A DNA stretch of 64,000 nucleotides from a virus. Made by a program: the position numbers and the translations under genes. The stretch is from the IMG/VR virus record IMGVR_UViG_3300017743_000004, positions 4,621 through 68,620 of that record; one strand, written 5' to 3'. Positions 27,741 through 48,614 of the stretch are shown here, piece by piece (within the stretch, counting starts at the first letter, position 1; each line of letters opens with the position of its first letter). The notes beneath the pieces are model-generated. The model saw only the letters and a list, made by a program, of their open reading frames with translations, was not told the origin of the DNA and searched no databases.

Positions 27741-29369
27741 ATGGCTACATTATTTGAAAGTTGTTCTGCGATTATGTATGCAGGTACTTTTTTAGGAGAT
27801 AATTCCCAAAAAGGTACCTCATTTTCATTTTTACCAACTTCAGGAATTGGGGATTTTGATTATACAGGTTCTACAGGTATTACAGGATCTTCAAGAATTA
27901 ATTCTACTTTAAATTTTCAGGAATTTACTATAAATGCTACCCCTAAAATAGATTATTCTTATACAAATGAAAATTTTGCATTTATAAGTGGGGGTGTTGT
28001 AGCTGATAAAACTATTTCTTCCTCTATTCTTCAAGGTTCATCTACAGGAAATTTAATTTTAGAGGGAGAAACTAATAATCATTTTGTTACCCCTATTACT
28101 TTTACAACAGCAAATGTAAATGTAGCTTCAAGTTCTTTAGATAAATTTATAACTGAAGGAAACTATGATTATAATATAGTAACATTCCAAGAAGATAACA
28201 CACCAGGCGAACAAGCACGTTTAGATTTTCAATTCAACGCATTTTCTGATGATGTAGAAAGAATAGTTAAAATTTCTTATTGTGTAAGTGGAGGTTTTCC
28301 TTTTAATTCAGTTACTGCAGATAAAGCTAGAATCTTAAAAATTCAAGGCCAATCTTTTGATCAGTTTTCAAATTTAGTGGGAACCGGAGAAGATATTCTA
28401 ATTAACCCTTCAGAATATACTAATGCTAAACTTGATCCTGATTCAGCTTCTATATTTGTAAGATCAGGTTTTAATAATTTAGAAGTTACAGATATCGGGG
28501 ATGGTTGGTTAAGACTAGCCCACCTCTCCAGAATGAGTGGATCAGTAGGAACAAATGATGTTTTAAGAGTTAGATATGTTACCCACACAGGCAACCCAGA
28601 TGGAGGCTTAAATGTAGGAAATAATAGCCCTGGTTCTGGTTCTTCAGGGGCACCTAATGGAAGTTTTACTTCAAGTATAGCAACATTCTCAATTGCTAAT
28701 TTACAGTTAGAAGTTATAGAAGATAGTATTACTGGTTCTTTATCTGGTTCAGCTGATTCTGTAAGGAATAGAAATGCCTTAGCATTCATGCCTGCTACCT
28801 CTTATATTCCAACAAGTGCTTCAGCAATTACAAAACCCTCAGAATCACTTGAATTACCATTAACTTCATCTACAATTGATAATTTTCTTACAGATCTAAA
28901 CCAAGGTACAATAATTACAAGATTTGCATGGACACCTTTATCAGGATCAGATGAAGCATCTTCTAATCACTTTGCATTATTAAAAACAGGTTCAGCTCCA
29001 TCCTCAGATTATTTAAGAATAGATGGTAGAGGAATTTATTATAGATCATCATCAGCAATATTCTCCCCATTATCTACTAACCAATCCCAGATCCCTTATT
29101 TAACTCAATCGGGTAGTTTAACACCTACAACATATCACAATTATGCATTTACTTGGAGTGGGTCTGAAATCTCATGTTCTATAGATAGTGGTTCAATTAT
29201 AACCGCTAAAGGACCTTGGACTGGGAGTAGTGGAGAACAATTAGAATATATTACAGGAATAACTAATATTTCACATAATACACAAGTAAGATTACAATAC
29301 ATTATGGTATCCCCTCATAAATTTAGTGCGGATGCTCTTAAAAATTCTACAAATACTACCATAGTTTAA
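27741..29369 (+). CDS. virion surface (head decoration/fibre) protein with carbohydrate-binding/LamG-like domains
   Basis: GDGWLRL, NLQLE, ATSYIPTS and TTYHNYAFTW motifs; S/T/G-rich. Confidence 0.55.
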   Translation: MATLFESCSAIMYAGTFLGDNSQKGTSFSFLPTSGIGDFDYTGSTGITGSSRINSTLNFQEFTINATPKIDYSYTNENFAFISGGVVADKTISSSILQGSSTGNLILEGETNNHFVTPITFTTANVNVASSSLDKFITEGNYDYNIVTFQEDNTPGEQARLDFQFNAFSDDVERIVKISYCVSGGFPFNSVTADKARILKIQGQSFDQFSNLVGTGEDILINPSEYTNAKLDPDSASIFVRSGFNNLEVTDIGDGWLRLAHLSRMSGSVGTNDVLRVRYVTHTGNPDGGLNVGNNSPGSGSSGAPNGSFTSSIATFSIANLQLEVIEDSITGSLSGSADSVRNRNALAFMPATSYIPTSASAITKPSESLELPLTSSTIDNFLTDLNQGTIITRFAWTPLSGSDEASSNHFALLKTGSAPSSDYLRIDGRGIYYRSSSAIFSPLSTNQSQIPYLTQSGSLTPTTYHNYAFTWSGSEISCSIDSGSIITAKGPWTGSSGEQLEYITGITNISHNTQVRLQYIMVSPHKFSADALKNSTNTTIV

Positions 29370-29388
29370 ATTTTCTTAATTTTTCTGA

Positions 29389-29423
29389 AGATGGCACATA
29401 CGTATCACGGTAATGTGCCATCT
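29389..29423 (+). promoter_or_regulatory. 11-bp perfect inverted repeat enclosing a late-promoter variant, upstream of scaffold/capsid operon
   Basis: AGATGGCACAT (29389-29399) / ATGTGCCATCT (29413-29423); ATACGTAT at 29398-29405. Confidence 0.65.
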
Positions 29424-29506
29424 CTATATATGGTACCTAATTAATCGATCTAATATTACGTTTTTTAAATAAACGTATTTTCACAAACAATTTAAATTTT
29501 GGAAAA

Positions 29507-30634
29507 ATGGCTGATAAGCAATTATTAAAAGAGGCCATTGCAGAAGCTAAAACCATTAAAGAAGTTGCTATTGCAAACGCAAAAGCTGCTCTTGAAGAAA
29601 CCTTCTCTCCAGTGCTAAAAGAAAAATTAGCAGCTATGATGGAAGAAGATGAAAAAATGGAAGAGGCTGATACAATGGAAGAAGCTAAAAACGAAATGGA
29701 AGAAGATGAAAAAATGGATGAAACTTATTCCTACCAAGAAGAAGGTATGGATCAGAATGAAAACATGGATGAAGCTTCTTTAGAGGAGTTATTAGCTGAA
29801 CTCGAAGAAGGTGAAGACACGAACGAGGAAGATAAAGTGAACGAGGCTGAATTGGATGAAGCTGAAGGCGATATGGACCTCGAAGAAATGTCTGAAGACG
29901 AATTAAAATCATTCGTCGAAGAAGTTATTGAAGATATGGTTCAAGCTGGTGAATTAGAAGCCGGTGGTGATCCTGTTGAAATGTCTGATGAAGAAGAAGA
30001 AGAGGAAGGTAAAGAGGAAATGGAAATGGATTCTATGGAAGAAGTTAACATTGACGAATTACTTTCAGAAGAAGACGTAAACGAGTTTGATCTTGCAGGC
30101 GCAGAAATGATTGCTCCTGAACTTATCGGTGGCGTCATTGCCGCACTTGGAGCACTTGGATTAGGTGCAGCGATCGATAAAGAGGAACTTAAGAAAATGT
30201 CATCTGACAAGCTTAAGGCTCTTGCTGCAAAACTCGGTGTAGGTAAGAAGAACGAGGAAGTCGAAGAAGGAGACATAGAGGAAATGAAGGAAGAGTTAGA
30301 TGAGTTAAAAGGTGAACTTTCCGAAGTTAACTTACTCAATGCTAAACTTCTTTACACCAACAAGCTCTTCCGTTCTAGAAGCTTAACAGAATCACAAAAA
30401 GTAAAAGTTTTATCAACATTTGATAAAGCTACTTCGGTAAAAGAAGTTAAATTAGTATTTGAGACACTCTCAGACTCATTAACTACTTCCCAGGTTGTAA
30501 AAGAAAATAAAGGTTCCGCATCTAGACCCACAGGTGGGGCTAGTAAAAATCCTCAACCGATCTTAGAATCTAACGATCAGGTTAGGAGATGGCAAAAATT
30601 AGCCGGTATTACTACCGATAAATCCTATACATAA
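29507..30634 (+). CDS. prohead scaffold protein (gp22-like)
   Basis: Very acidic coiled coil between protease and capsid genes; EVNLLNAKLLY; RWQKLAGI tail. Confidence 0.85.
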   Translation: MADKQLLKEAIAEAKTIKEVAIANAKAALEETFSPVLKEKLAAMMEEDEKMEEADTMEEAKNEMEEDEKMDETYSYQEEGMDQNENMDEASLEELLAELEEGEDTNEEDKVNEAELDEAEGDMDLEEMSEDELKSFVEEVIEDMVQAGELEAGGDPVEMSDEEEEEEGKEEMEMDSMEEVNIDELLSEEDVNEFDLAGAEMIAPELIGGVIAALGALGLGAAIDKEELKKMSSDKLKALAAKLGVGKKNEEVEEGDIEEMKEELDELKGELSEVNLLNAKLLYTNKLFRSRSLTESQKVKVLSTFDKATSVKEVKLVFETLSDSLTTSQVVKENKGSASRPTGGASKNPQPILESNDQVRRWQKLAGITTDKSYT

Positions 30635-30636
30635 AA

Positions 30637-32304
30637 ATGGAATTAGTAAACAACTTAGTCAACGAATCCGCAGAGTCGTTTAGAAACATGCAAAGCGACG
30701 CTGCAAGATTAGCTGGTAAGTGGGAAAAGACAGGTTTACTTGAGGGCTTAGATAATGAGCTTGAAAAGAACAACATGTCACTTATCCTCGAAAACCAAGC
30801 TAAGCAATTATTGAACGAAAGTTCATTAACAGGTACTGGTGGTACCTTCGCAGCAGGAACTGGTGAGCAGTATGCCTCTGTAGTCTTACCTATGGTAAGA
30901 AAGATTTTTGGACAGGTAGCTGCCCAAGAATTCGTATCTGTTCAACCAATGAATTTACCTTCAGGTCTGGTATTCTTCTTAGATTTCCAATATGGAACTA
31001 GTAAGACTCCTTTCTCAGCTGGTGATTCGCTTTATGGAAACACTGGTTCCGACCAGTTCCCATTCTCAACTGCTGAATCTAATCTGAATCAAGCAAACAC
31101 TGGTGGATTATATGGTGCAGGTAAGTTCTCTTACTCTACAAATAATCATACTGCTTCTACTGGTATTACTTCTGCCTCAGCAACTTTTGCAGATGTTAAT
31201 TTTGACTCCAGATTATCTTCATCAATTGTAAATGGAGATATTGTTAAATTAACTGTTGGAACTGCTAGAACTACTTTAGCGGATTTAGATAAAGAAGCTG
31301 TAAGAAGCTTTATTATCTCCTCAGGTTCTAATGTTACCTCAGATAATATCCTTCCTGCTTTTACAAAGTATGATGAAGGTGCTAATACTGTAACTTTCTT
31401 TACTACTGGATCGGATATTACAATCCACCAAACTAGTTCATATGTAGTAGAATACAGTAAGCAAACCAAAGATAACGCAAGAGGTGATTTCGAAGCAGGT
31501 GCTGCATTTGCTGTACCTAATGCTCAGTCTGCTGCTAATATCTCAATCCCAGAAATTAATATCGGAATGAGATCATTAGGTATTATTGCTAAGACTAAAA
31601 AGCTGAAGGCAGTATTCACTCCTGAACTCGCTCAGGACTTGAACGCTTACCAAGCTTTAGATGCCGAAGCTGAAGTTACCAACATCATGTCTGAGTACAT
31701 TTCCTTAGAAATTGACTTGGAAATTCTTGATATGTTGATGGCTGATGCTTTAACAACTGAGTTCTGGTCTGCTAAGAACAACAGAGTAATTAATGATGCC
31801 AAGACTGCTTTCGAAGCTGAAGGAACAAACGGATTCTACAACACACAGGGTCAGTGGTTCCAAACATTAGGTACCAAGCTTCAGAAGGTATCTAACAAGA
31901 TCCACCAATTAACTTTAAGAGGTGGTGCCAACTTCATGGTAATCTCTCCAACTGTAGCTACTGTTATTGAGTCAATCCCAGGATTCGCCTCAAACTCTGA
32001 TGGTGATGCTGCTAACATGGAGTACGCGTTTGGTGTACAAAAGGCAGGTACTTTGAACAGCCGCTACACTGTGTACAAGAACCCTTACATGAATGAAAAT
32101 ACCATTCTGATGGGTTACAGAGGTACTCAGTTCTTAGAGGCAGGTGCTGTATTCGCTCCTTATGTACCGTTGATCCAAACTCCATTAGTATACGATCCTG
32201 ACACGTTCGTACCTAGAAAAGGTCTCTTAACACGCTACGCTAAGAAGATGTTAAGACCAGAATTCTACGGTAAGGTCTTCGTGAATGGATTGAACACTCT
32301 CTAA
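30637..32304 (+). CDS. major capsid protein (T4 gp23-like)
   Basis: KW..TGLL, ILENQ, VSVQPMNLPSGLVF, KLKA.FTPELAQDL, EIDLEIL, APYVPL, F.P.KG..TRY. Confidence 0.96.
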   Translation: MELVNNLVNESAESFRNMQSDAARLAGKWEKTGLLEGLDNELEKNNMSLILENQAKQLLNESSLTGTGGTFAAGTGEQYASVVLPMVRKIFGQVAAQEFVSVQPMNLPSGLVFFLDFQYGTSKTPFSAGDSLYGNTGSDQFPFSTAESNLNQANTGGLYGAGKFSYSTNNHTASTGITSASATFADVNFDSRLSSSIVNGDIVKLTVGTARTTLADLDKEAVRSFIISSGSNVTSDNILPAFTKYDEGANTVTFFTTGSDITIHQTSSYVVEYSKQTKDNARGDFEAGAAFAVPNAQSAANISIPEINIGMRSLGIIAKTKKLKAVFTPELAQDLNAYQALDAEAEVTNIMSEYISLEIDLEILDMLMADALTTEFWSAKNNRVINDAKTAFEAEGTNGFYNTQGQWFQTLGTKLQKVSNKIHQLTLRGGANFMVISPTVATVIESIPGFASNSDGDAANMEYAFGVQKAGTLNSRYTVYKNPYMNENTILMGYRGTQFLEAGAVFAPYVPLIQTPLVYDPDTFVPRKGLLTRYAKKMLRPEFYGKVFVNGLNTL

Positions 32305-32327
32305 TAGAGTATTTGATCAGTAAAATC

Positions 32328-32355
32328 AAGAGCCGCTTTTTGCGGCTCTTTTTTT
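32328..32355 (+). terminator. Rho-independent terminator after capsid gene
   Basis: AAGAGCCGC-TTTTT-GCGGCTCTT followed by T-run. Confidence 0.9.
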
Positions 32356-32373
32356 ATCTCCTATAGGTAACTA

Positions 32374-32381
32374 ATATGTAT
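32374..32381 (+). promoter_or_regulatory. late promoter variant ATATGTAT
   Basis: TAATATGTATA just after the terminator; ATG at 32406. Confidence 0.5.
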
Positions 32382-32405
32382 AGGTGAATAAGTAAATGTA
32401 AAAAA

Positions 32406-33317
32406 ATGTTGCAAACACCATCTCAATTAACGGTTCCGAGTTATTTAATGAACTTCCCGTTTTCGCTATCTACAGATCATCCTAATAATGTTTGGATGAA
32501 AGAAATGAGTCCCGAGGACTTACAAATAAACCAATCTAGAGCGTATCGCCAATTTTTAGAATTATATAATTTTTTAGCAGGTGGTTCTTTAGTTTATCTA
32601 TTACCGACTGAAGATAACTTCCAGGATTTAGTTTATACAGCTAATCTAGGAATTTATCTACCTCATTTAAAAGATAATAATATTTTATTATCAAACTTTA
32701 CTTCAATCCCTCGTCAAGGGGAAGAGTTAATTGGAGAAAAGTTTTTACAACAAATGGGTTATAATACTTTTATCACCCCTACAAAATGGGAAGGTGAAGC
32801 CGATTTAAAATATTTGTACGATAATGTTTATATAGGGGGATATGGAATCCGTTCACAAAAAGAAACTTATGAGTGGATGGAAAAAGAATTTGATATGAAC
32901 ATTATTAAGGTTGAAATGGTAGATGAATATTTGTATCATTTGGACTGTAGTATTTTCCCGTTATCTAACGATAAAACTATGGTTTGTACGTCGTTGTATA
33001 ACGATGAGGAAATAGCGCATATAGAACAATATACTGAGATAATCCCCGTATCTGAAGATGATGCAATGGGGGGTATTACAAATTCCGTAAGAATGGGTAA
33101 TACTATTTTATGTGCCTCAAACATTGTAGAGTTAAAACGTACAGATGAGAATTACGATCACGAAAAAAATAAACTTGCTACTTTAGAAAAAATATGTGCC
33201 CATGAGGGAATGGAGCCCGTTATATTTAATTTATCAGAATACATGAAATCAGGAGCAATGCTCTCATGTATGGTTATGCATCTAAATTACGTTGATCAAG
33301 TAAAATCTCTTCTATAA
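32406..33317 (+). CDS. amidinotransferase / guanidino-modifying enzyme, ArgZ-like arginine dihydrolase
   Basis: DLVYTAN, RQGEE, WEGEAD, GYGIRS, YHLDC, SEYMKSGAMLSC (catalytic Asp, His and Cys present). Confidence 0.85.
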   Translation: MLQTPSQLTVPSYLMNFPFSLSTDHPNNVWMKEMSPEDLQINQSRAYRQFLELYNFLAGGSLVYLLPTEDNFQDLVYTANLGIYLPHLKDNNILLSNFTSIPRQGEELIGEKFLQQMGYNTFITPTKWEGEADLKYLYDNVYIGGYGIRSQKETYEWMEKEFDMNIIKVEMVDEYLYHLDCSIFPLSNDKTMVCTSLYNDEEIAHIEQYTEIIPVSEDDAMGGITNSVRMGNTILCASNIVELKRTDENYDHEKNKLATLEKICAHEGMEPVIFNLSEYMKSGAMLSCMVMHLNYVDQVKSLL

Positions 33318-33318
33318 A

Positions 33319-34074
33319 ATGGCAAAAGCTTTACAAGAGTGGTTGGATACAGATGTTAAAAATCTAAAGAAAAAACCAATTAAGGATCTATCAAGTATAT
33401 TCTTCTTTAGAGACCCTATTAGACCACAACTTATAGACCCAGATAGATTCTATTCCCCAGCAGATGGAACTATTCTATACCAAAAAATAGTAGATTATCC
33501 AAACGAACCTATTGTAGAGATTAAGGGAGTAGATTATACATTACAGGATGTTCTACAAGATCCTGACTATAACCAACCAGCATTAGTTATAGGAATTTTT
33601 ATGTCATTTTATGATGTTCATGTAAATAGAATTCCTTATGGAGGTGTTTTAACTTACCAAGCTTTAGATGCAATCGAGAGTTATAATAAACCTATGTTGG
33701 CTGTAGAACATGATATTCTAAGTAGGACGATCAATCCTAACAATATGGGTTATTTAACTAACAACGAGAGAATGTGGAATAAAATATATTCACCTTCCAT
33801 AGATTACACATATTATTTAGTTCAAATTGCGGATGAAGATGTAAATGTGATTTCACATTTTACGAATGATCAAAATGAAATTTTTGCACAAAACGAAAGG
33901 TTTTCTTTTATTAGATGGGGTTCTCAGGTTGATTTAGTTTTACCACTTGATGAAAGGTTTGACTTTCAAACGTTACAAAACGTAACAGACCACGTTGAAG
34001 CTGGAGTAGATCCATTAGTAGAAATTAAACCAACAGAACATGAGCTCAAATCACCATACCGATCCTATTTTTAA
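33319..34074 (+). CDS. phosphatidylserine-decarboxylase-fold pyruvoyl enzyme lacking a membrane anchor
   Basis: FFFRDP.R, SPADG, IFMSFYDVHVNR.P..G, NER, QIA, FIRWG-SQVDL self-cleavage site. Confidence 0.85.
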   Translation: MAKALQEWLDTDVKNLKKKPIKDLSSIFFFRDPIRPQLIDPDRFYSPADGTILYQKIVDYPNEPIVEIKGVDYTLQDVLQDPDYNQPALVIGIFMSFYDVHVNRIPYGGVLTYQALDAIESYNKPMLAVEHDILSRTINPNNMGYLTNNERMWNKIYSPSIDYTYYLVQIADEDVNVISHFTNDQNEIFAQNERFSFIRWGSQVDLVLPLDERFDFQTLQNVTDHVEAGVDPLVEIKPTEHELKSPYRSYF

Positions 34075-34726
34075 CGAGAAAAAAAGACCTAAAAATCCTA
34101 TTAAGTTTAATTTATCTTTAAATAGCGAGCAAAAAGAAGCAAAAAAGCATATTATAGAAAATCCTGTTACAATTCTAAGAGGAGCAGCAGGTTCAGGTAA
34201 AACTTTAGTGGCGTGTCAAGCTGCTTTAGATATGTTATTTACTAAACAGGTCGAAAGAATTATAATTACTCGCCCTACTGTCTCAAAAGAAGAAATAGGA
34301 TTCCTCCCAGGGGATATTAAAGAAAAAATGGATCCCTGGTTAGCACCTGTCCATCAAAATCTATTTAAACTTTATAATAAAGATAAAGTAATGAAAGAAA
34401 TAGATGAAGGTAGGATTGAAATCATCCCATTTGCATTTATGCGAGGTATTACATTTACAGAAAGTTTTGTAATTGTAGATGAAGCCCAAAACGTAACTCA
34501 TAACCAAATGGAAATGGTTATAGGACGTTTAGGAAGAAATTCAAAAATGGTAATTTGTGGTGATGTTTCTCAAATTGATTTACGTTATAAAAAGGAATCA
34601 GGGTTTGCTTTTTTACCAAATATTGAAGCACAAGTTGAAGGCTTTAAGTTAATAACTTTAAGACATAACCATAGACATGATATAGTTCAGCCAATTTTAG
34701 ATATTTATTCTAATTATAGAGATTAA
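34040..34726 (+). CDS. phoH: PhoH family ATPase
   Basis: GAAGSGKT, ITRP, GFLPGD..EKMDPW, FMRG.TF, VDEAQN, GDVSQID, RH.IV. Confidence 0.95.
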   Translation: MSSNHHTDPIFNEKKRPKNPIKFNLSLNSEQKEAKKHIIENPVTILRGAAGSGKTLVACQAALDMLFTKQVERIIITRPTVSKEEIGFLPGDIKEKMDPWLAPVHQNLFKLYNKDKVMKEIDEGRIEIIPFAFMRGITFTESFVIVDEAQNVTHNQMEMVIGRLGRNSKMVICGDVSQIDLRYKKESGFAFLPNIEAQVEGFKLITLRHNHRHDIVQPILDIYSNYRD

Positions 34727-34737
34727 TATTTATCATC

Positions 34738-35286: not shown

Positions 35287-35288
35287 TT

Positions 35289-35855: not shown

Positions 35856-35868
35856 AATAGAATAAGTT

Positions 35869-38661
35869 ATGGCGTTACCTGATTTTACGGGACAAAATAT
35901 ACAAGATACCTACCAAAGAGTAGTTCAAACTGATGGGTCCCTCTTGTACAATGGTACAGGTAGTATTTTAAATACCCTCCCTGTAACAGCATCTCACGCT
36001 ATTTCAGCCTCATATGCTGTTTCTGCATCTCACGAAATTATAAAAGAGGTAAGTTCCTCATTTGCTGATACTGCTTCATTTGTTAATCCTTTAAATCAGG
36101 ATGTTACTATTACAGGTTCAGGTGATTTAATTTTAAATGCAGGCAGTGATATTATAGGTCCTTCTACTTTTAGAATTTACTCTGATTTTTCTAATAGAGG
36201 TAGAATTGATTTATTTTCCACAACAGGAGTTGGTGCAGCAAATGTAAAACTATACGGAGGTACATCTACATTAGAATTACAACACGATAGTGGAGTTGAA
36301 ATTATAGGCTCCACTAAAATACAAGGCTTAGGTACAACAGACGCAACCACTGCTTTAAGAGTAGAAGACGCAAATGCTTCTGCTTCTTTTATAGTAAGAG
36401 ATGATGGTAACGTAGGTATAGGTACAACTTCTCCTGTAGGAATACTTCATGCTTATTCAACCTCTGCACCTGTTATAGAAAGCCCTTCTAATGCAGCTAT
36501 AATAATTAGAAGAAATGATAATACAAACTATTCATCACTTCTTAAATACCATTCAGGTAATTCAGAAAAGTTTGTAGCAGGGTTGTCTGATGCAGGGGAT
36601 TTTACAAACTCTACAGGTGAGGAATATTTTATCGGTACAACCAAAACAAATCCTTTATTAGTATTAAAGAACGATGGTAAATTAGGTATAGGTACAACAT
36701 CACCATCATATAAATTAGATGTAAGTGGTAGCGGTAATTTTACAGATGGATTAGACATAACAGGCTCTCTTAATGTAACAGCAGGTAACGTAGGTATAGG
36801 AACTAATGTACCTTCCTCAAGACTCCAAGTTAAAGGTTCAGGTACAACATCCTCAACTACAGCTTTAAGAGTAGAAAATGCAAATTCATCTGCTTCTTTA
36901 GTTATAACAGATGATAGTTTAATTCAAGTAGATAATCCACCTTTTACAACTTCAACAGCAGCTGATTTTGAAGGTATACTTTTAAGTAATACTGCTGAAA
37001 TTAGGAGTAATAGCAATGCTTCGGGTAGAGTAGCTGGGTTTAGATTATTTAACCCTAGTACTTCAACTGGTCAATTAGAATTATATAGAGCAGGAGTAGT
37101 AACTACCCAATTAACATCAGGTGACCAAACTTCTAATAACTATTCTTTTGTAACCTATGGTAACTTTGGATTGGGTACTTCAACACCTGATAAAGGTAAG
37201 TTAGTAATATCAAGTAATTCAATTAGAACTGTCGCAGAATCTATACTGTATGTAACAGGTAGTACTTCAGATAGTTACGATTTAGCAAGATTTGTATCCG
37301 ATGATACTGCTAGAGTAGTTATTACTAATAGTGGAAGTGTAGGTATAGGTACAACATCACCCACCGAAAAACTAACCATAGAAGGTAACATATCAGCATC
37401 AGGAGATTTAGCAATTCAAGGATTTCCAAGTGTATCCGCATCCTTGGCATCATCAGGAGGTGGAGGTGGTGGTTCTCAAACCCTACAACAAGTATTAGAT
37501 ACAGGTAATACCGCAGCATCTGATATGACCCTTAACGGGGAATTAAATGTAAACGGAATCCAATTCACCACCTCTAGCAATGAACAATCTCTTGGTATAG
37601 GTAATAATGTATTAAGTAATAATACAGGAACTGATGTTACTGCTATCGGAAGAATAGCAGGTCAAAACAATTCAGGCTCTAATTGTGTTATGATTGGGGA
37701 AAGTGCTGGTTCAAATAATAGCGGTAGTTCTACTGTTATGATTGGAGAACTTGCAGGTTCATTAAACAAAGGTAATGATTGTGTACTTATAGGTTACACA
37801 GCAGGTGCTAATAACTTTGGTAATCAACAAGTCTTTATAGGATTTAATGCAGGTAAAAACCAATATTCTGGATCAGTAAGTGGTGTTGATGCTACTAATA
37901 ATGTAAGTATAGGATTTAGAGCAGGAGAATTTAGTTCTGGGAGTAATGTCTTGGTAGGTGCTGACACTGGTAGAAATAATCAAGGAACTAATAATGCATT
38001 TATAGGATCAGGAAACGCCGCAGGAGGAGCTAACACAGGAGATGGAAATATTGGAATTGGTGCAAATGCTCTTTCCACAAACCAGGGGGATCATAATATA
38101 GCATTTGGTAGAGATGCATTAAAAGTTAATGAAAGAGATTATAGTGTAGCAATAGGTCATAGTACCCTTAAAAATCAAACAACTGGTCAATATAATATTG
38201 CTATAGGAAGGGATGCCGGTGCTAATGGTGCTGCGGCTCTTACGGGGCAACAAAATATTTTTATTGGATATGATGTTACTTATGGAAATTCATCAGGTGG
38301 TTTACTAGGGGCAATTGGTATAGGGAATTCTATTGATTTAACTCAATCTTATTCCATTGTATTAGGTAGACCAACTTATACTTATATGAAAGTAGGAATA
38401 GGAACTTCTACACCTACTGCTAGACTTCATGTAAAAAGTGGATTTACAACTAGCGCCCAAATGGCTTTCCTTGTTGAAGATTCAAATGGAACTGATTTAT
38501 TCAAAGTAACATCTGATGGTAGAATAGGTATACCCATTTCAGTAACACCATCAGGTACCTCAGATTCACAAGGAAGTCAAGGTGATATATCTTATGATGA
38601 TGATTATTTTTATGTAAAAACTTCTGCTGGTTGGAAAAGAGCAGCATTATCAACTTTCTAA
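35869..38661 (+). CDS. tail fibre / adhesin
   Basis: About six GNVGIGTTxP-type repeats; N..IG..AG beta-roll repeats; C-terminal GDISYDDDYFYV...WKR.AL. Confidence 0.85.
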   Translation: MALPDFTGQNIQDTYQRVVQTDGSLLYNGTGSILNTLPVTASHAISASYAVSASHEIIKEVSSSFADTASFVNPLNQDVTITGSGDLILNAGSDIIGPSTFRIYSDFSNRGRIDLFSTTGVGAANVKLYGGTSTLELQHDSGVEIIGSTKIQGLGTTDATTALRVEDANASASFIVRDDGNVGIGTTSPVGILHAYSTSAPVIESPSNAAIIIRRNDNTNYSSLLKYHSGNSEKFVAGLSDAGDFTNSTGEEYFIGTTKTNPLLVLKNDGKLGIGTTSPSYKLDVSGSGNFTDGLDITGSLNVTAGNVGIGTNVPSSRLQVKGSGTTSSTTALRVENANSSASLVITDDSLIQVDNPPFTTSTAADFEGILLSNTAEIRSNSNASGRVAGFRLFNPSTSTGQLELYRAGVVTTQLTSGDQTSNNYSFVTYGNFGLGTSTPDKGKLVISSNSIRTVAESILYVTGSTSDSYDLARFVSDDTARVVITNSGSVGIGTTSPTEKLTIEGNISASGDLAIQGFPSVSASLASSGGGGGGSQTLQQVLDTGNTAASDMTLNGELNVNGIQFTTSSNEQSLGIGNNVLSNNTGTDVTAIGRIAGQNNSGSNCVMIGESAGSNNSGSSTVMIGELAGSLNKGNDCVLIGYTAGANNFGNQQVFIGFNAGKNQYSGSVSGVDATNNVSIGFRAGEFSSGSNVLVGADTGRNNQGTNNAFIGSGNAAGGANTGDGNIGIGANALSTNQGDHNIAFGRDALKVNERDYSVAIGHSTLKNQTTGQYNIAIGRDAGANGAAALTGQQNIFIGYDVTYGNSSGGLLGAIGIGNSIDLTQSYSIVLGRPTYTYMKVGIGTSTPTARLHVKSGFTTSAQMAFLVEDSNGTDLFKVTSDGRIGIPISVTPSGTSDSQGSQGDISYDDDYFYVKTSAGWKRAALSTF

Positions 38662-38680
38662 TAATAAAAACAAAAAACAA

Positions 38681-39007
38681 ATGGCTATACAAGCAACTTC
38701 AACATTCGAATATAATTCCGGAGTATACACAAACCCTTACTTTAGAATTGTTTTAAATTTACCACAAGATGGTCAACAAACCCCAGTAGACTGTTTTATG
38801 TATTCTTCACAAGATGCATATATTTCTGGAAGTGGGCAAATTGCATGTTTTCCTTTCTATATTAATAATGCATCAGCTTCAGTTGATAACAGCGGAGATA
38901 ATGTAATTAACAAATACCTCTTGTTTGTTACAGAACAAATTACAGGTTCATTAGAAACAATGTCTTCAGGTTCTACATTTAATATTATTGAGATACCAAC
39001 TCTCTAA
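38681..39007 (+). CDS. small fibre-associated protein
   Basis: Directly follows the fibre gene. Confidence 0.55.
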   Translation: MAIQATSTFEYNSGVYTNPYFRIVLNLPQDGQQTPVDCFMYSSQDAYISGSGQIACFPFYINNASASVDNSGDNVINKYLLFVTEQITGSLETMSSGSTFNIIEIPTL

Positions 39008-39014: not shown

Positions 39015-39025
39015 AACAAAAACCA

Positions 39026-41926: not shown

Positions 41927-41931
41927 AAATT

Positions 41932-42825
41932 ATGTCAACATTTTCATCAACAGAAATTACTGAAGCTTCAAGTACTACTTTTGTAGGTATTACTGGTTCT
42001 ATATTTAATAGTTCAAGTTTAGATGAATCTGGTTCACAAGAAATACTTCAACCTTACTATATGGAGATTTTAGTTGATCCTGATAGAAGAGGAGAAGCTT
42101 ATCAATACGATCCTCAAACAGATACCCATCAATTTAAAATAAATTATTCTGACCAAAAAGGGCCTGATAATGGTCTCCAACTTCGATCAGAGTATAATTA
42201 TTTTACTACTCATTCATTTCAAGTAAGATTCCTTAAATTCAATGGGGTAGACGGAGAATTTTGTCAAACCTTTTCCCAACATGACCCTCCTTCAATCGCT
42301 GCGGAGTATGATTTAGGGCTAGCTAGTGGATATAGATCCCAATTAGCTAATAATATTAAGTATGAGGGTACTAAAAAATTCTTCTCTCTAAAACTTAGAG
42401 CATCAAACCCAGACCCAAACGTTGTTTCTGATCAAGTCTTTATTTTATCATCTTCATTAGAGATGGGAGAATGGTTTGATGTAGAATATCGTTACACTTG
42501 GGGTGCTAATAGAAATTCGACGGTAATCGGAAAAATAAATAACGAAACTGTAGTTCAGGAAAACGTAGATACTCTTTGGAACCAAAATGAAACCTTTTAT
42601 GTTTTAATAGGATGCTACCAGGATGGTGATATTGGAAAAAAAGGAATAGAAACTATTACTCAAGTTCGTAATTATAAGATGGGTGATTCTTCGGGAATGT
42701 TTCAAGTTTTACCTAATTATGATAAACAAATTAGTGATAAAAATAATGAACCTCCTAATAATATTTCTTTTCCATTAGACCCAAGGTCATCTGCCCAAAA
42801 CGTTAATGGTTCAAATCCTTATTAA
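41932..42825 (+). CDS. virion protein with polysaccharide-lyase-like beta-jelly-roll domain
   Basis: RSE, FSQH, GEWFDV, FYVLIGCYQ echo lyase-type motifs in degenerate form. Confidence 0.45.
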   Translation: MSTFSSTEITEASSTTFVGITGSIFNSSSLDESGSQEILQPYYMEILVDPDRRGEAYQYDPQTDTHQFKINYSDQKGPDNGLQLRSEYNYFTTHSFQVRFLKFNGVDGEFCQTFSQHDPPSIAAEYDLGLASGYRSQLANNIKYEGTKKFFSLKLRASNPDPNVVSDQVFILSSSLEMGEWFDVEYRYTWGANRNSTVIGKINNETVVQENVDTLWNQNETFYVLIGCYQDGDIGKKGIETITQVRNYKMGDSSGMFQVLPNYDKQISDKNNEPPNNISFPLDPRSSAQNVNGSNPY

Positions 42826-42827
42826 AT

Positions 42828-44126
42828 ATGCCTCAATATCTTTTAAAAAATATACCTGTATCAGACCAATATGTAGAAGGGTCTTATCAATATGTTTCTG
42901 AAGTATGGAGAGACCCAAATAAACCAGGTGCATACAAATACATAAATAGAGAGAATAAAGCAAGAACTAAATTACAAGGAGTAACAGGTAAAAAACATGT
43001 TTTTACAGTAAGTGATGATAAGGTAGCAGGTAGAAATGCTGCTTATTTAAGATTATTCACTACTAATTTAGTTAGATTCTCTTTTAATCTATCCATCCCA
43101 GATAGTTCAAGTATGGACTTACAAGATGCTGAGGATTTTATTACTGTTTTCCAAATGGAACATCCTTTGTTTTCCGCTAACGAATACCGAAAAGGACATT
43201 CATATGCTTGGGATACCCCAGCTAAAGTTCATATTAAAAAAGATATTGCAGCATCAACCTCCGCGGGATTTGATAAATACTATTGCGAATGTGTTTATAG
43301 AGAATTAGAAGTATCAGGAAGTTGGGCTGACTATCAATCAGGTAAAAAATACCCTCCACCTTCATATCCTACCTCTTCAGATCTTCCCGCAGGATATAGA
43401 CCTTTTCATATCCCAACTTCATTTTACCCACCCTCCGAAAAAACTTTACAAACTTCGTCTTTATTTATACAAGGAGATACTATACTAATAGCATGTGTTT
43501 TTGATTTACAGAAACAAATGGGAGGGAGAATTATTAGTATTTTTAATACCCCTTTAGATGATGTAGATAGGGAAAGAGATACTCCTGCTGATTGGGGTTC
43601 AATGGAAATGTCAAGGTATTATCCTAATTATGGACTAGAGTTATCTCCCTCAGTTGCCGCTAGAGGCAATACAAACATAATTGAAATATATGACCCTACA
43701 ATAGGAGAAAATATTACAGCAGTTCCTGATCTCTATACTAGCAATTTTATTACATTTGCATCTCAATCATTTATAGAGGACTACGAATACCCATTACCAT
43801 CTCCGGAATATGGGTTAAAAGCATTAGATACAAATATTCTTTTTAATTGGGATCCTACAGATTTAACAACCCCATCAGGATCCGAAGGAACAAGTACAAA
43901 CAAAGTTACTACACTAGTATCCCCTCAAGGTAAAAGATATAAATCACCCCCAGGAGGTGGAGGAACTAGTAAATTAATTAATGCTCATATAGTACCTGAT
44001 TTTGGTAGAGTTAAAACTTTTAATGAAGTTGAATTTTTATTTAGTAAAGATGTCCATTCAGTACAAACGGAAAATAAAGTCTCCATAACTTCTTTTTATA
44101 ACAAGATAAAATCAACCCCAGTTTAA
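42828..44126 (+). CDS. hypothetical virion protein
   Basis: Long ORF in tail region; FITVFQMEH; C-terminus similar to that of 51773..52387. Confidence 0.55.
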   Translation: MPQYLLKNIPVSDQYVEGSYQYVSEVWRDPNKPGAYKYINRENKARTKLQGVTGKKHVFTVSDDKVAGRNAAYLRLFTTNLVRFSFNLSIPDSSSMDLQDAEDFITVFQMEHPLFSANEYRKGHSYAWDTPAKVHIKKDIAASTSAGFDKYYCECVYRELEVSGSWADYQSGKKYPPPSYPTSSDLPAGYRPFHIPTSFYPPSEKTLQTSSLFIQGDTILIACVFDLQKQMGGRIISIFNTPLDDVDRERDTPADWGSMEMSRYYPNYGLELSPSVAARGNTNIIEIYDPTIGENITAVPDLYTSNFITFASQSFIEDYEYPLPSPEYGLKALDTNILFNWDPTDLTTPSGSEGTSTNKVTTLVSPQGKRYKSPPGGGGTSKLINAHIVPDFGRVKTFNEVEFLFSKDVHSVQTENKVSITSFYNKIKSTPV

Positions 44127-44142
44127 TAATATTTATTATAAA

Positions 44143-44280
44143 ATGGCGGATAATACAAAATCTGTAGATCAAAATAAGGTGCCTAGAATTGGAAGTAAAT
44201 CTCCAACTCAAATACCTTCTCAAATACAGGTTAGATATGAACCTCCTATTATAGAAGCTGGGGGAGAAATAACAGAATAA
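44143..44280 (+). CDS. small protein, 45 aa
   Basis: Not in track: MADNTKSVDQNKVPRIGSKSPTQIPSQIQVRYEPPIIEAGGEITE; has its own ATATTTAT (44129-44136) and AAAATG context and fills the gap exactly. Confidence 0.6.
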   Translation: MADNTKSVDQNKVPRIGSKSPTQIPSQIQVRYEPPIIEAGGEITE

Positions 44281-44283
44281 AAC

Positions 44284-44865
44284 ATGGCAAAAAGAAATAA
44301 TAGATTAATTTTACCTGATTTTTTTGGAACTAAATCTACTTTAGAAAATAATTCTATAGTAAATACAACATCCCCATTACAACCAGGAGAAACTATATTT
44401 GAAAAGGATACAGGACAATTTAAAACGAATTTAACTGATTCTACTCTAGCTTGGAATTCCTCATCATACACAGGTAATACAATTAGATTTGAAGATTTAA
44501 CAGCTTTAAGGGCATATGAGTATCCTTTGGCAAATCAATTATTTCATACTGTATCACCCCAAAGATTTTTTTATTACGACGCAACCGATTCTACTTCCAC
44601 AGATAATAGTGTAGATGTAATTACTACAGTAGGAGGGAAAAGATATAAGCAATTTTCCAATTTTCCATTTACAGGTAGTGCATCCGTATCAGGTAGTTTA
44701 ACTGTATCAGGTAGTTTTATATTTAGTGGAACGGGTTCAACTCCTTTTTCTATAGCTAATCTTCCGACTATTGATCCGGGTGTAGCGGGAGCTCTTTATA
44801 CAACAGGAAGTGAATTTTTTGGGTCGGATGCGGGCACCGGTAAAAAAGTATTAATGATCTCATAA
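44284..44865 (+). CDS. short fibre/collar-like structural protein
   Basis: LQPGE...EKDTGQFK collar-type motif; TGSASVSGSLTVSGS repeat; LPT.DP.VAGALY tail. Confidence 0.55.
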   Translation: MAKRNNRLILPDFFGTKSTLENNSIVNTTSPLQPGETIFEKDTGQFKTNLTDSTLAWNSSSYTGNTIRFEDLTALRAYEYPLANQLFHTVSPQRFFYYDATDSTSTDNSVDVITTVGGKRYKQFSNFPFTGSASVSGSLTVSGSFIFSGTGSTPFSIANLPTIDPGVAGALYTTGSEFFGSDAGTGKKVLMIS

Positions 44866-44866
44866 A

Positions 44867-46042
44867 ATGGCAGTATACAAAATATTTCCTGAAAAAGACG
44901 CAACTCTATACTCTGCTTACCCTACAATGAATACCGGAAGGGATGAGATTTTAGAAATAGCAAATCTCCAACCTGAAAATTCAAATGTTCCCGAAGACGT
45001 AAGAAGAACATTAATTAAATTTTCTGAAGGGGATATAAACGAAGTTATAACTAATGACATCCCCACAGATTTAGTAGCGTCTGAATCATATTCGGCTTCA
45101 TTAAGATTATTTATAGCGGATGCTACTTCTATCCCTACAGATTATAATATTGAAGCCTATCCTGTGTGGATAGGAGTAAATGCCAAAACCTATGAAATGG
45201 GGACAGGAAAATTTCTGGATTCTCCTCAAACCACAAATGGTGTTTCTTGGGTTTATAGAATTAAAAGTGGAAGTGAACAATGGACTCTAGACCCAGATGA
45301 ACTACCTAGTGGAGTAGCCTTAGATTATGGAACTACCCCTGGGGGTGGGAATTGGTATATTAATAATTCTGTTTATGATAATATCTTTACTAATCAAAGA
45401 TTTTTTTATAATGATGATCAAGATATTAATATAGATGTTACTGATTCTATTAAAGCATTTTATACGGCGTCATTAAGTAGTCCTTCTAATATAGTTGAGG
45501 GTGGTATAATAAATGATGGGTTTATATTAAAACTTCCATCTACAGTTGAATTTTCAGATGCCTATATGGGTCTAAAATTCTTTTCAGTAGATACTCATAC
45601 AATATACCCTCCCTGTTTAGAATTAAAGTGGAATGATACTGTATATTCTACAGGTTCACTATCTACAATCTCACAAACCCCATTTGTAATAACATTTAAA
45701 TCAAACCAACCTAAATACACCCAGGGTTCTACCCAAAGATTCAGATTAAACGTGCGTCCCCAATTCCCAACACGTACATTCCAAACTTCATCAGTGTATT
45801 TAAATAATCATTATTTACCTCAAGAATCATTTTACGCAATAAAAGATTTAGATACAGGTGAATTTATAATAAATTTTGATAATACATGCACTAAAATATC
45901 AGCAGACAGTACTTCAAGTTATTTTGATGTATTTATGAATGGGTTACAACCCGAGAGATATTATAAAGTATGTATTAAAACTACTATTGATGGTAGTACA
46001 GTTATATTAAGTGAAGGTTTAACGTTTAAAGTAAGTTTATAA
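44867..46042 (+). CDS. virion structural protein with DNRLRE-like domain
   Basis: EKDATLYS..P..NTG.DEILEI...RRTLIKF; P.LELKW.D. Confidence 0.6.
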   Translation: MAVYKIFPEKDATLYSAYPTMNTGRDEILEIANLQPENSNVPEDVRRTLIKFSEGDINEVITNDIPTDLVASESYSASLRLFIADATSIPTDYNIEAYPVWIGVNAKTYEMGTGKFLDSPQTTNGVSWVYRIKSGSEQWTLDPDELPSGVALDYGTTPGGGNWYINNSVYDNIFTNQRFFYNDDQDINIDVTDSIKAFYTASLSSPSNIVEGGIINDGFILKLPSTVEFSDAYMGLKFFSVDTHTIYPPCLELKWNDTVYSTGSLSTISQTPFVITFKSNQPKYTQGSTQRFRLNVRPQFPTRTFQTSSVYLNNHYLPQESFYAIKDLDTGEFIINFDNTCTKISADSTSSYFDVFMNGLQPERYYKVCIKTTIDGSTVILSEGLTFKVSL

Positions 46043-46043
46043 A

Positions 46044-46292
46044 ATGGAATCAGTAAAATTAGAACAAGAAGAAATCCAAAAATTATCTAAAATTCAAGAA
46101 CACCAACAAAATTTTATTGTTGAGTTAGGTAGACTAGAGTATGATATTACACTTTTAGAATTTCAAAAAGACAAAATCCAAGAAGAAATAGAGCAGTTAG
46201 CTCAATCCTCCCAAGACCTAGCTAAAGAACTCGAAACTAAGTATGGGGCGGGTACCATAAATATGGAAAAAGGAGAGTTTTATAAACAATAG
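46044..46292 (+). CDS. small coiled-coil protein
   Basis: Heptad coiled coil ending KYGAGTINMEKGEF. Confidence 0.6.
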   Translation: MESVKLEQEEIQKLSKIQEHQQNFIVELGRLEYDITLLEFQKDKIQEEIEQLAQSSQDLAKELETKYGAGTINMEKGEFYKQ

Positions 46293-46312
46293 TTCTTTTG
46301 ACAAAGTAAATA

Positions 46313-46320
46313 ATATTTAT
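46313..46320 (+). promoter_or_regulatory. putative late promoter core ATATTTAT
   Basis: Intergenic, before sheath ATG at 46339. Confidence 0.7.
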
Positions 46321-46338
46321 AATCAAAAATACTAAAAA

Positions 46339-48060
46339 ATGGCAGAAGTCCTTCTTTCACCTGGTGTTTTAACAAGAGAAAACGACCAGTCCTTCTTAAC
46401 ACAGCAACCCATTCAAGCAGGAGCTTGTATTGTGGGTCCTACAGCAAAAGGTCCTACTACTCCTACTTTAGTCCGCTCATATTCTGATTATGTAAACAGA
46501 TTTGGTACTACTATAGTTTCGGGTTCACAGGTATACTCATATTTTACAAATATCTCAGCCCAAAATTATTTTAATAATGGTGGTACTACTTTATTAGTAG
46601 CAAGAGTTACCTCAGGTACATTTACCTCAGCAACATCTTCGTATATAGCAACCGGATCAGGAGCTGCTACTAATACTTCCCCATTCACACTAAGAACTCT
46701 CTCAGAAGGGGCTATAATGAATACCGGAGATACTGAAGGAACTAATAATACTTTAGCTTCAGGATCAATTGATAATGTTAGGTGGGAAATACCTACAGTA
46801 AATACAGCCTCAGGTGAATTTTCACTATTAATTAGACAGGGTAGTGACAGTCAAACAGAAAAAGTAGTTTTAGAATCTTATGATGGTTTATCATTAGATC
46901 CTAAATCATCTAATTTTATTTCTAAAGTAATAGGTAATACTAGAGAATCTGTAGTAACCACAGCTGATGGAACTTTTATTCAAGTATCAGGTAGTTTTCC
47001 AAACACTTCTAGATATGTAATAGTAGATAAAGTCCATGCTTTAACTCCTGATTATTTAGATAATAATGGAACTGCAAAAACTATTTTCACAGGTTCTTTA
47101 CCTTCTGTTTCAAGTGGTTCATTTGGTGGAGCTTTAGGAAATCAATTTAAAGCTTCTGAGGAAGCCTTATTCTATCAGAATATTGCAGCAGGCAATATCC
47201 AGGGATTAGATGATACTGATTACGCAACTACTTTTACTTTATTGAATAATAAAGATGAATATCAATTCAATGTAATCTCAGCTCCTGGTATTACTAGAGA
47301 TTTACATCCCACCCAATTTAACTCTTTAGTTAATTTAGCCCAAACTAGAACAGATACAATCGCAGTAGCTGATTTAGTAGGATACAATTCAACAATTGGA
47401 GCTGTAACTACACAAGCAGGAAATGTAAATAGCTCATATGCTGCTTCATATTGGCCATGGGTACAAATTAATGACCCTGATACAGGAGAATATGTATTTG
47501 TCCCTGCTTCAACATTAATCCCAGGTGTATATGCATTTAACGATTCTGTTGCAGAACCTTGGTTTGCACCCGCGGGTATTAACAGAGGTGGATTAGATAC
47601 AGTAGTACGTCCTGAGAAGAAATTAACTCAATCAAATAGAGATACTTTATACGGTGGTAAAGTAAATCCAATTGCAGTATTTCCTAATACAGGAACGGTA
47701 GTATTTGGTCAGAAAACATTACAGAAAAAAGCATCTGCTTTAGACCGCGTAAATGTTAGAAGACTGTTAATTGCTCTTAAATCATTTATTGGTCAAACAG
47801 CCGCTAACTTAGTATTTGAACAAAATACTATCACCACAAGAAACAACTTCTTAACTCAAGTAAACCCATATTTAGAATCAGTTCAACAAAGACAGGGATT
47901 ATTTGCCTTTAGAGTTGTAATGGATGATACAAATAATACACCTGATGTAATCGACAGAAATCAATTAGTTGGTCAGATTTTCTTACAGCCAACTAGAACA
48001 GCAGAATTTATTGTACTTGATTTCAACGTGTTGCCTACAGGAGTTGAATTTCCATCTTAA
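46339..48060 (+). CDS. tail sheath protein (gp18-like)
   Basis: SPGVLTREND, GPTAKGP, YWPW, WFAPAGINRG, GQKTL, DRVNVRRL, FEQN, P.RTAEFI. Confidence 0.95.
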   Translation: MAEVLLSPGVLTRENDQSFLTQQPIQAGACIVGPTAKGPTTPTLVRSYSDYVNRFGTTIVSGSQVYSYFTNISAQNYFNNGGTTLLVARVTSGTFTSATSSYIATGSGAATNTSPFTLRTLSEGAIMNTGDTEGTNNTLASGSIDNVRWEIPTVNTASGEFSLLIRQGSDSQTEKVVLESYDGLSLDPKSSNFISKVIGNTRESVVTTADGTFIQVSGSFPNTSRYVIVDKVHALTPDYLDNNGTAKTIFTGSLPSVSSGSFGGALGNQFKASEEALFYQNIAAGNIQGLDDTDYATTFTLLNNKDEYQFNVISAPGITRDLHPTQFNSLVNLAQTRTDTIAVADLVGYNSTIGAVTTQAGNVNSSYAASYWPWVQINDPDTGEYVFVPASTLIPGVYAFNDSVAEPWFAPAGINRGGLDTVVRPEKKLTQSNRDTLYGGKVNPIAVFPNTGTVVFGQKTLQKKASALDRVNVRRLLIALKSFIGQTAANLVFEQNTITTRNNFLTQVNPYLESVQQRQGLFAFRVVMDDTNNTPDVIDRNQLVGQIFLQPTRTAEFIVLDFNVLPTGVEFPS

Positions 48061-48586: not shown

Positions 48587-48614
48587 TACTTCGCTGCTAC
48601 CTTAGGTAGTTAAT

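Follow-up and report, generated by a model that had tools for sequence, protein, structure and literature searches.

What accounts for a three-residue motif that recurs in unrelated virion proteins of a single virus? The motif, [ST]-[GAS]-S, occurs in proteins encoded by IMG/VR record IMGVR_UViG_3300017743_000004, a 68.6-kb viral contig with a CheckV completeness of 42%. The stretch analyzed, referred to here as the window, is 64,000 nucleotides long and comprises bases 4621–68620 of that contig. The genes of the window all lie on the + strand, with a GC content of ~32%, and scans of its open reading frames (ORFs) against PHROG and Pfam identify a T4-core myovirus. The head and neck genes include the large terminase, portal, prohead protease, Gp23-type major capsid protein (MCP), PhoH, and an adaptor-like neck protein; the tail genes include the sheath, the tube, and parts of the hub and wedge; and the replication module includes a primase, exonucleases, SSB, a UvsX-like recombinase, a DnaB helicase, and ribonucleotide reductase. 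The original prediction, drawn from the nucleotide sequence and its translations, was that the motif is concentrated on outer virion surfaces and is either a post-translational mark, such as O-glycosylation, or a repeated binding site that coats the particle. The present analysis points to a Ser-directed O-glycosylation sequon on outward-facing virion domains, a reading to which we assign a probability of about 0.42.

The motif is more frequent than the composition of the proteins predicts. Across 70 ORFs of the window, 109 copies are present against 55.9 expected from whole-protein shuffles. The composition-preserving shuffles that had been proposed as a check give a clear excess in the twelve motif-rich proteins, which hold 101 copies where 31.8 ± 5.7 are expected (z 12.1). 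Shuffling within 15-residue windows, which keeps the local richness in Ser, Thr, and Gly, gives an expectation of 35.2 ± 5.8 (z 11.4), and under these local shuffles the permuted classes [GAS]S[ST], [GAS][ST]S, and S[ST][GAS] reach z values of 1.3–1.6. In the same proteins TGS occurs 22 times and its reverse SGT 4 times, while [ST][GAS]T, the T-ending form, is found 25 times with 26.4 expected.

The requirements at each position were profiled by substituting residues one at a time in the twelve rich proteins and in a 1733-residue fiber/baseplate-like ORF that starts upstream of the window. At position 1, both Ser (82 vs 22.7 expected) and Thr (54 vs 17.7) are enriched, and all other residues remain at or below 1.3 times expectation. 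Position 2 favors Gly (71 vs 12.8), Ala (27 vs 9.3), and Ser (38 vs 18.2). Position 3 is the most restrictive, with Ser at 136 vs 40.3 and Thr at 28 vs 32.2. The motif is position-specific and enriched beyond composition, with its T-ending control at expectation, which is the behavior expected of a sequon. The objection that it was picked after the fact is answered by ranking every tripeptide in the 39 ORFs of the virion module, chosen in advance, where SGS comes first (35 vs 8.5, z 9.1) and TGS second (22 vs 6.9, z 5.7), with SAS within the top 15. Sequons of the host type, D[ST][AILVMT] (21 vs 21.9 expected in the twelve proteins) and N-x-[ST] (68 vs 71.0), are at expectation and are ruled out.

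Neither nucleotide repeats nor common descent accounts for the recurrence. The codons of the motif are mixed, with Ser encoded by both TCN and AGY, and no DNA-level repeat can therefore underlie it. Pairwise BLAST among the twelve rich proteins returns two weak similarities only, which rules out homology as the source. Given that the proteins are mutually non-homologous, the motif arose many times independently.

The enrichment is a property of one phage clade and not of phages generally. By MCP identity, the nearest sequences are Flavobacterium phage vB_FspM_immuto (55%; immuto below), the uncultured megaphage LR756508.1 (47%), Microcystis phage Mel-JY01 (46%), and Rhodothermus phage RM378 (36%). 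IMG/VR relatives number at least 599 confirmed matches, of which the best 80, with MCPs 58–91% identical, were analyzed; G001, G002, G003, and G006 are relatives, with G001 and G003 being complete. In all, 10 genomes or partial genomes of the clade or its relatives (for LR756511.1, bases 300001–595163) and 8 unrelated controls were analyzed, and none was dropped. Over whole proteomes, the observed-to-expected ratio of [ST]GS is 3.0 in the window, 2.45 in immuto, 2.4 in Mel-JY01, 2.7 in RM378, 2.1 in G001, and 2.3 in G003. The ratio lies between 0.70 and 1.59 in the controls, which are T4, RB49, Syn9, SPO1, Listeria LIS04, Cellulophaga phi38:1, Flavobacterium FCL-2, and Mycobacterium Che8; in T4 and RB49 the motif is not enriched. 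These eight genomes rule out a generic trait of phage structural proteins or of Bacteroidota phages. The preference for a final Ser holds genome-wide, with S-ending (xxS) motifs at 267 vs 126.5 expected in G001 and 285 vs 149 in G003, and T-ending (xxT) motifs at 107 vs 108.6 and 166 vs 161.6, respectively. In immuto and Mel-JY01, orthologues of rich proteins are rich and orthologues of poor proteins are poor, and about 80 IMG/VR contigs are enriched as well.

Where the copies lie is clearest for the capsid and sheath. The MCP was predicted to carry seven copies at residues ~135–268 and none in the conserved core, and the sheath eight copies within its first ~265 residues. Recounting bears out both statements. 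The MCP copies are TGS136, TAS172, SAS179, SSS194, SGS229, TGS257, and TSS266, with none elsewhere in the protein, and the eight of the sheath fall within the span given in Table 1. The same holds across relatives, as 78 MCP orthologues contain 585 copies with 199 expected, and each member of a 76-sequence alignment has 3–13 copies (median 7, expected 2.5), nearly all at window residues 134–298. Sites 194, 257, 229, and 172 match the motif in 73, 68, 63, and 56 of the 76 sequences. These four sites swap within the class (TAS, SAS, TGS, TSS, SGS, SSS), with Thr rare at position 3, and their triplets are more conserved than their flanks in the variable region, the third Ser being highest (1.00, 0.93, 0.84, and 0.80).

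Alignment to T4 gives these sites a structural setting. Positions 64–212 of the MCP profile align to residues 12–169 of mature T4 gp23 and positions 302–531 to residues 184–413, which identifies the region of the motif as an insertion domain of the T4 type together with an extra insert. From the T4 gp24/gp23 structures, we take the insertion domain to be on the capsid exterior. A Foldseek search with a model of the MCP also matches T4 gp23/gp24. In the sheath, residues 340–571 are the only part that matches solved sheaths (T4 gp18 residues 420–651), and all eight copies are upstream of it. Outward placement is in both cases a judgment at the level of domains, made from the MCP and sheath alignments. 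Cleavage by the prohead protease is ruled out by reasoning: in the MCP the sites fall within the mature domain, and the tail proteins that carry others do not come into contact with this protease.

In the window, the motif is avoided outside of the outer virion proteins. The sets compared were defined by gene function, and P values are from the Poisson distribution. The replication and metabolism genes carry a single copy (Table 1; P 4e-4), and [ST][GAS]T is present in them 12 times vs 8.7 expected. The block of genes from tail tube to hub has no copy vs 8.2 expected (P 2.7e-4), with [ST][GAS]T at 4 vs 6.4. The earlier claim that the portal, tail tube, tape measure, 946-residue hub, and helicase are free of the motif agrees with the recount, which is 0 for each. 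Among 58 portal orthologues in the 80 relatives, xxS occurs 3 times vs 39.9 expected and xxT 32 times vs 39.0, a depletion given little weight because the orthologues share ancestry.

Enzymes that could read such a motif are found in the relatives. The original prediction recognized no modifying enzyme in the window, and PHROG and Pfam scans of the window and the 4.6 kb upstream of it likewise contain no glycosyltransferase. By synteny with immuto, a cluster would be expected ~40 kb past the end of the contig. In immuto, the annotations of gp169–gp181 include five glycosyltransferases, two aminotransferases, an epimerase, a methyltransferase, and a ‘pilin glycosylation protein’. A GT-B enzyme resembling gp181 is encoded by Mel-JY01, RM378, and 5 of the 17 relatives searched, including all three that are at least 90% complete. 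The cluster of G001 contains, by Pfam, GT1, GT1, GT2, GT15-like, hexapeptide acetyltransferase, GFO/IDH/MocA oxidoreductase, RXYLT1-like, FkbM methyltransferase, and GT2 genes. A simple hydropathy scan detects no transmembrane-like segment in the 15 ORFs at this locus (the cluster and a flanking nuclease), and Pfam detects no flippase, polymerase, or phosphoglycosyltransferase in the cluster. The lack of such segments and of a flippase suggests that the transferases act in the cytoplasm, directly on a soluble acceptor, and do not build a lipid-linked envelope glycan.

Comparison of gene content narrows the candidates. Immuto has 39 ORFs in common with Mel-JY01, G001, and G003, of which only 6 lack a counterpart in every one of the 11 outgroup genomes. 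The six encode a gp180-like GT-B enzyme, a gp178-like GT2 enzyme, a recombinase, and three proteins of no known function, and none is annotated as a kinase or acyltransferase. The gp180-like profile matches strongly in immuto and Mel-JY01 and finds no match in LR756508.1, in the analyzed bases of LR756511.1, or in any of the 8 controls; in RM378 it yields only a weak cross-match to the gp181-like gene (E 1.5e-6). The gp180-like gene adjoins the gp181-like gene in G001, G002, G003, and G006. A scan of viral contigs for the gp180-like transferase returned 80 loci, all 60–88% identical, which probably belong to the same clade. In Mel-JY01, the gp181-like gene is split into two ORFs at 83441–84932, and the match contains internal stops (one TGA and one TAA). 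As Mel-JY01 is enriched despite this split, the gp180-like enzyme may be the better candidate, or the gp181-like enzyme may work in two pieces.

The gp181-like profile has a weak match to GtfA/Gtf1 (4pqg, E 1e-3), the O-GlcNAc transferase of serine-rich-repeat proteins, and Pfam finds only Glycos_transf_1 in the enzyme. Among solved structures, B736L of chlorovirus NY-2A is the nearest in sequence to both conserved GT-B enzymes (E 2e-10 and 0.011), the similarity being mainly in the nucleotide-binding half (profile positions 206–340). In a passage of PMC9614988, B736L is described as a putative mannosyltransferase with an unknown acceptor. DNA is an unlikely target for the immuto cluster, judging from passages of PMC10516641 on the composition of immuto DNA. 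There, analysis by liquid chromatography with ultraviolet detection and tandem mass spectrometry (LC-UV-MS/MS) showed a 324-Da fdPreQ1 peak in place of dG and peaks for three canonical nucleosides; the analysis was aimed at 7-deazaguanines, and those passages report no glycosylated base.

Taken together, the specificity of the motif, its recurrence in a dozen unrelated proteins, its confinement to parts that probably face outward, its lack of enrichment in unrelated phages, and its avoidance elsewhere in the window argue that something reads it in trans. A Ser O-glycosyltransferase system would be the most economical reader, given the conserved soluble cluster and the known precedents. The sequence phi-[ST]-[GAS]-S-phi, with hydrophobic flanks, would then be the recognition motif for a covalent O-linked modification, most probably glycosylation, and the invariant third-position Ser the likeliest acceptor. 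The modification would fall on the insertion domain of the MCP, the sheath outside its core, the neck protein, the putative head fiber, the tail fibers, and the 1733-residue fiber-like protein. The enzymes would be soluble, phage-encoded orthologues of immuto gp180 (GT-B) and gp178 (GT2), probably with gp181 (GT-B), clustered with enzymes that modify sugar nucleotides and acting in the cytoplasm of the infected cell. In this phage, the cluster would be in the part of the genome beyond the 42%-complete contig, and head, neck, sheath, and fibers would all end up coated with glycan. The wider proposition, in which clade-wide cytoplasmic Ser O-glycosylation reads the motif and coats the whole particle while internal and non-virion proteins avoid the motif, is advanced more tentatively.

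A number of observations weigh against glycosylation. The presence of the enzymes in this phage is inferred by extrapolation from relatives with MCPs 58–67% identical, and the transferase cluster could serve another soluble acceptor. The original proposal was to seek glycosyltransferases elsewhere and to follow their co-occurrence with the motif; complete relatives have a cluster, and gp180 and gp178 follow the enrichment. LR756508.1, on the other hand, carries a gp181-like transferase (E 1e-74), the oldest of these enzymes, without enrichment of the motif (xxS 336 vs 284.5; MCP 1 vs 1.1; sheath proteins 1 vs 1.5 and 0 vs 1.1). RM378 also has a gp181-like gene, yet its MCP and sheath orthologues are not enriched. 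The match of gp180 and gp178 with enrichment amounts to a single evolutionary event, because it concerns only one clade. Within the MCP, some ten semi-conserved sites account for the excess, and the alignment has 53 distinct xxS columns vs 62 xxT columns and thus no sign of free motif turnover. Depletion in non-virion proteins is weak outside of the window, with 31 copies vs 41.2 expected in non-virion ORFs of immuto and the remaining non-enriched ORFs at expectation in G001 (84 vs 76) and G003 (87 vs 89). Finally, the AlphaFold2 model of the MCP, built with 29 close orthologues, has a mean pLDDT of 50.6, with residues 170–275 at 65–82.

The chief alternative is that the motif is structural and specific to the clade, forming an amphipathic beta-strand or beta-bulge without covalent modification, in which two hydroxyls would share one face and a small Gly, Ala, or Ser would sit between hydrophobic neighbors on the other. 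Such an element, used in the surface domains and trimeric fibers of this lineage and partly in period-6 arrays, appears somewhat unlikely overall, and several regularities are what it would predict. A hydrophobic residue precedes 49% of the copies and follows 52%, where the background is 31%, and pairs of copies within 20 residues in the window have 42 even and 10 odd spacings, with a peak at distance 6 (10 pairs vs 2.1 expected); in G001, distances 6, 12, and 18 account for 51, 42, and 30 pairs. Both features count against the sequon because a structural beta-strand motif would also produce them. That 19 of the 101 copies are in period-6 or period-12 arrays of fiber-like proteins, that many sites keep their position among orthologues, and that LR756508.1 has a related transferase without the motif also fit a structural role. 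On the other hand, 59 of the 101 copies lie more than 12 residues from any other, and these isolated copies alone exceed the 32 expected in total. The proteins concerned have no detectable mutual similarity, and in the low-confidence MCP model the copies at residues 170–275 appear in a strand, at strand ends, and in a helix. Thr forms beta structure better than Ser but is only at expectation at position 3. The eight unrelated phages are unenriched although they have beta-rich fibers, sheaths, and Gp23-type capsids, and the S form is depleted while the T form is not in the replication and tube-to-hub proteins of the window.

A different reader, by phosphorylation, acylation, a phospho-form, or weak binding to a polysaccharide, mucus, or a decoration protein, is improbable. 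The unrelated proteins, sharp position profile, and depletion elsewhere would fit any reader acting in trans, and the window does encode a kinase fold of the Zeta-toxin/AAA_33 type (5631–6428) as well as an ORF at 27741 that resembles lectin-like head-fiber clusters, the latter only as a lead. Homologues of the kinase-fold gene are missing from immuto, Mel-JY01, and RM378, all of which are enriched, and its product is ruled out as the reader. The comparison of gene content produced two glycosyltransferases and no annotated kinase or acyltransferase. One decoration protein would hardly bind capsid, sheath, neck, and fibers alike, and carbohydrate-binding surfaces are usually aromatic. An artefact of composition or of post hoc choice is already largely refuted and very improbable. 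The rich proteins are indeed rich in Ser, Thr, and Gly (Ser 8–15%), the motif was defined after the sequences were read, and some copies are in short tandem arrays; against this stand the local shuffles and permuted classes, the excess of TGS over SGT, the all-tripeptide ranking, and the eight control proteomes near 1. Of the original interpretation, then, what stands is a real degenerate motif in non-homologous proteins, located in the MCP insertion and the non-core sheath, depleted elsewhere in the window, and specific to a clade; its reading as a mark or binding site is weakened by LR756508.1, by a depletion that is strong only in the window, and by the beta register.

The proteins concerned are collected in Table 1.

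Table 1. Features of the window with their copies of [ST]-[GAS]-S (observed vs expected) and positions in the window unless stated.
Feature	Coordinates	Strand	Copies	Placement
Fiber/baseplate-like ORF, 1733 aa	contig 300–5501; C-terminal 292 aa = window 3..881	+	35 vs 8.3	
Tail-fiber-module protein, 341 aa	1580..2605	+	7 vs 2.7	
Tail-fiber-module protein, 292 aa	2611..3489	+	8 vs 2.1	
Replication/metabolism genes	3490..20683 and 57657–63998	+	1 vs 10.2	
S/T-rich protein, 542 aa, between prohead protease and scaffold gene	27741..29369	+	19 vs 5.8	
Gp23-type MCP, 555 aa	30637..32304	+	7	residues 136–268 (nt 31042–31440)
Fiber/spike protein, 930 aa	35869..38661	+	21 vs 9.2	period-6 array, residues 30–70
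Protein, 108 aa	38681..39007	+	4 vs 0.6	
Neck/head-completion protein (adaptor-like), 384 aa	39026..40180	+	5 vs 1.2	
Protein, 297 aa	41932..42825	+	4 vs 1.2	three in period-6 array, residues 21–33
Protein, 432 aa	42828..44126	+	5 vs 1.6	
Protein, 193 aa	44284..44865	+	7 vs 1.7	period-6 array, residues 130–150
Protein, 391 aa	44867..46042	+	6 vs 1.5	
Tail sheath	46339..48060	+	8	all at residues 61–259
Tube, hub subunit, tape measure, ORFs 51773 and 52387, wedge-like protein, 946-aa hub	48098..57450	+	none	

The remaining counts of the original prediction were reproduced for the ORF at 27741 (19), the fiber at 35869 (21, where about 20 had been counted by eye), the neck protein (5), and the ORF at 38681 (4), and the “many” copies noted at 1580, 2611, 44284, and 44867 are 7, 8, 7, and 6. 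The proteins at 41932 (4) and 42828 (5) and the 1733-residue ORF (35) extend that list. The last is the most motif-rich protein of the contig; it is related to the 1265-residue gp109 of immuto and has homologues in immuto (85620–89417) and G003 (109912–114375, with 35 copies vs 8.6 expected). Enrichment is also retained among orthologues of the tail-fiber-module protein at 1580 (5 vs 1.7 expected in immuto and 9 vs 2.2 in Mel-JY01), with sites kept at alignment columns 102, 144, 264, and 400. The 34 orthologues of the neck protein contain 130 copies vs 36.3 expected, with TGS 25 times and SGT once. The immuto orthologue of the protein at 44867 (84179–85288) adjoins an annotated baseplate wedge gene, and its YSTGSLS segment is kept in three phages. 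The ORF at 27741 is possibly a head spike or head fiber, for which its resemblance to the ‘phage head spike fiber domain’ and ConA-like lectin clusters of a protein atlas is no more than a lead; one orthologue was found among the 80 relatives.

In the fiber at 35869, residues 30–70 (window 35869–36080) form a period-6 array of the pattern [ST]-A-S-[YHF]-A-[ILV], which looks like a fiber-shaft repeat built around the motif. In the fibers of G001, ASY, SYA, and YAL are among the most enriched tripeptides. The tripeptide statistics of G003 are dominated by a massive repeat (NTA 221 vs 27, AVG 153 vs 19), carried by a 2670-residue fiber-like ORF (152379–160391) and by further ORFs. The proteome of RM378 is enriched in the gapped pair T-x-S (295 vs 159 expected, z 10.7), with TLS, TFS, and TGS among its top tripeptides, a pattern broader than and unlike that of the clade of the window.

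Other genes of the window lie apart from the motif. Between the MCP and PhoH genes is a gene for a phosphatidylserine-decarboxylase-family protein (33319–34074; PF02666, E 8e-25), adjoined by a conserved phrog_12759 gene (32406–33317). Orthologues of the two are present in the loci of 19 of the 80 relatives and absent from immuto. The neighbor of the kinase-fold gene encodes a 1021-residue protein with a DUF6934 segment (6425–9490), which is partly similar to a 907-residue ‘NadR’ protein of immuto.

If glycosylation at the motif is correct, it would be a form of virus-encoded virion glycosylation in which a short sequon is spread over many virion proteins. No bacterial virus would have had a short O-glycosylation sequon defined before, and the system would be the counterpart, in a virus of prokaryotes, of the autonomous glycosylation of giant viruses. 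Given 7 sites in each MCP, 8 in each sheath subunit, and copy numbers presumably of the T4 type, the sites bearing phage-made sugars would number in the thousands per particle. Such a coat would bear on virion stability, adsorption, grazing, aggregation in water, and recognition by host surface defenses, and on how capsid proteins are interpreted in metagenomes, the clade being common in aquatic viromes. Glycoengineering would gain a three-residue tag and a soluble enzyme set. Were the motif purely structural, it would still be an unusually sharp, lineage-specific signature of exposed phage domains and would call for an explanation in structural terms. The literature searched contains no description of the motif or of virion glycosylation in this clade, and nothing on Mel-JY01. 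The claim is directly testable now, as both immuto (host Flavobacterium sp. LMO8) and Mel-JY01 are on record as isolates with named hosts.

Glycosylation of virions has precedents with which the proposed system can be compared. In mycobacteriophages, glycosyltransferases reportedly decorate capsid and tail proteins with O-linked glycans, as proposed or shown in 2023 by Freeman and colleagues in Cell Host Microbe; the phages are said to be siphoviruses of Actinobacteria, with sites at the C-terminal regions of capsid and tail-tube subunits. Unlike those tail-tube sites, the tail tube of the window is without a copy of the motif, and mycobacteriophage Che8, one of the controls, has a weak [ST]GS ratio of 1.55 and no enriched ORF. 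We know of no short sequon across many virion proteins described for mycobacteriophages. In chloroviruses, MCP glycans are N-linked at atypical sites, whereas an O-linked modification is favored here. As in the cluster of the relatives, the autonomous capsid glycosylation of chloroviruses and giant viruses is described, in passages of PMC9614988, as using soluble glycosyltransferases encoded by the virus itself and enzymes that modify sugars, methyltransferases among them.

In sequence, the motif can be compared with the acceptor sites of bacterial systems. The decoration of T4-type capsids is also a surface feature, since the Ig-like domains of Hoc are thought to mediate weak interactions with the surroundings, as stated in PMC10385173; Hoc, however, is a separate decoration protein, whereas the motif of the window is embedded in many structural proteins. 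One such acceptor site is the SASSAS O-glycosylation signature given for Lentilactobacillus S-layer proteins in a passage of PMC10221546. No long serine-rich-repeat region is present in the window proteins, and the weak 4pqg match is the sole link to GtfA/GtfB. These cytoplasmic GT-B (GT4) enzymes O-GlcNAcylate Ser in S-A-S or S-x-S contexts of serine-rich-repeat adhesins. Bacteroidota have a general, periplasmic O-glycosylation system with the sequon D-(S/T)-(A/I/L/V/M/T), which is also of three residues and belongs to the probable host phylum, but it is a different motif and is not enriched here. The substrates of GtfA/GtfB and the SASSAS proteins are long disordered Ser-rich repeats or carry one local signature in secreted proteins, whereas the motif of the window is scattered through the folded domains of a dozen virion proteins.

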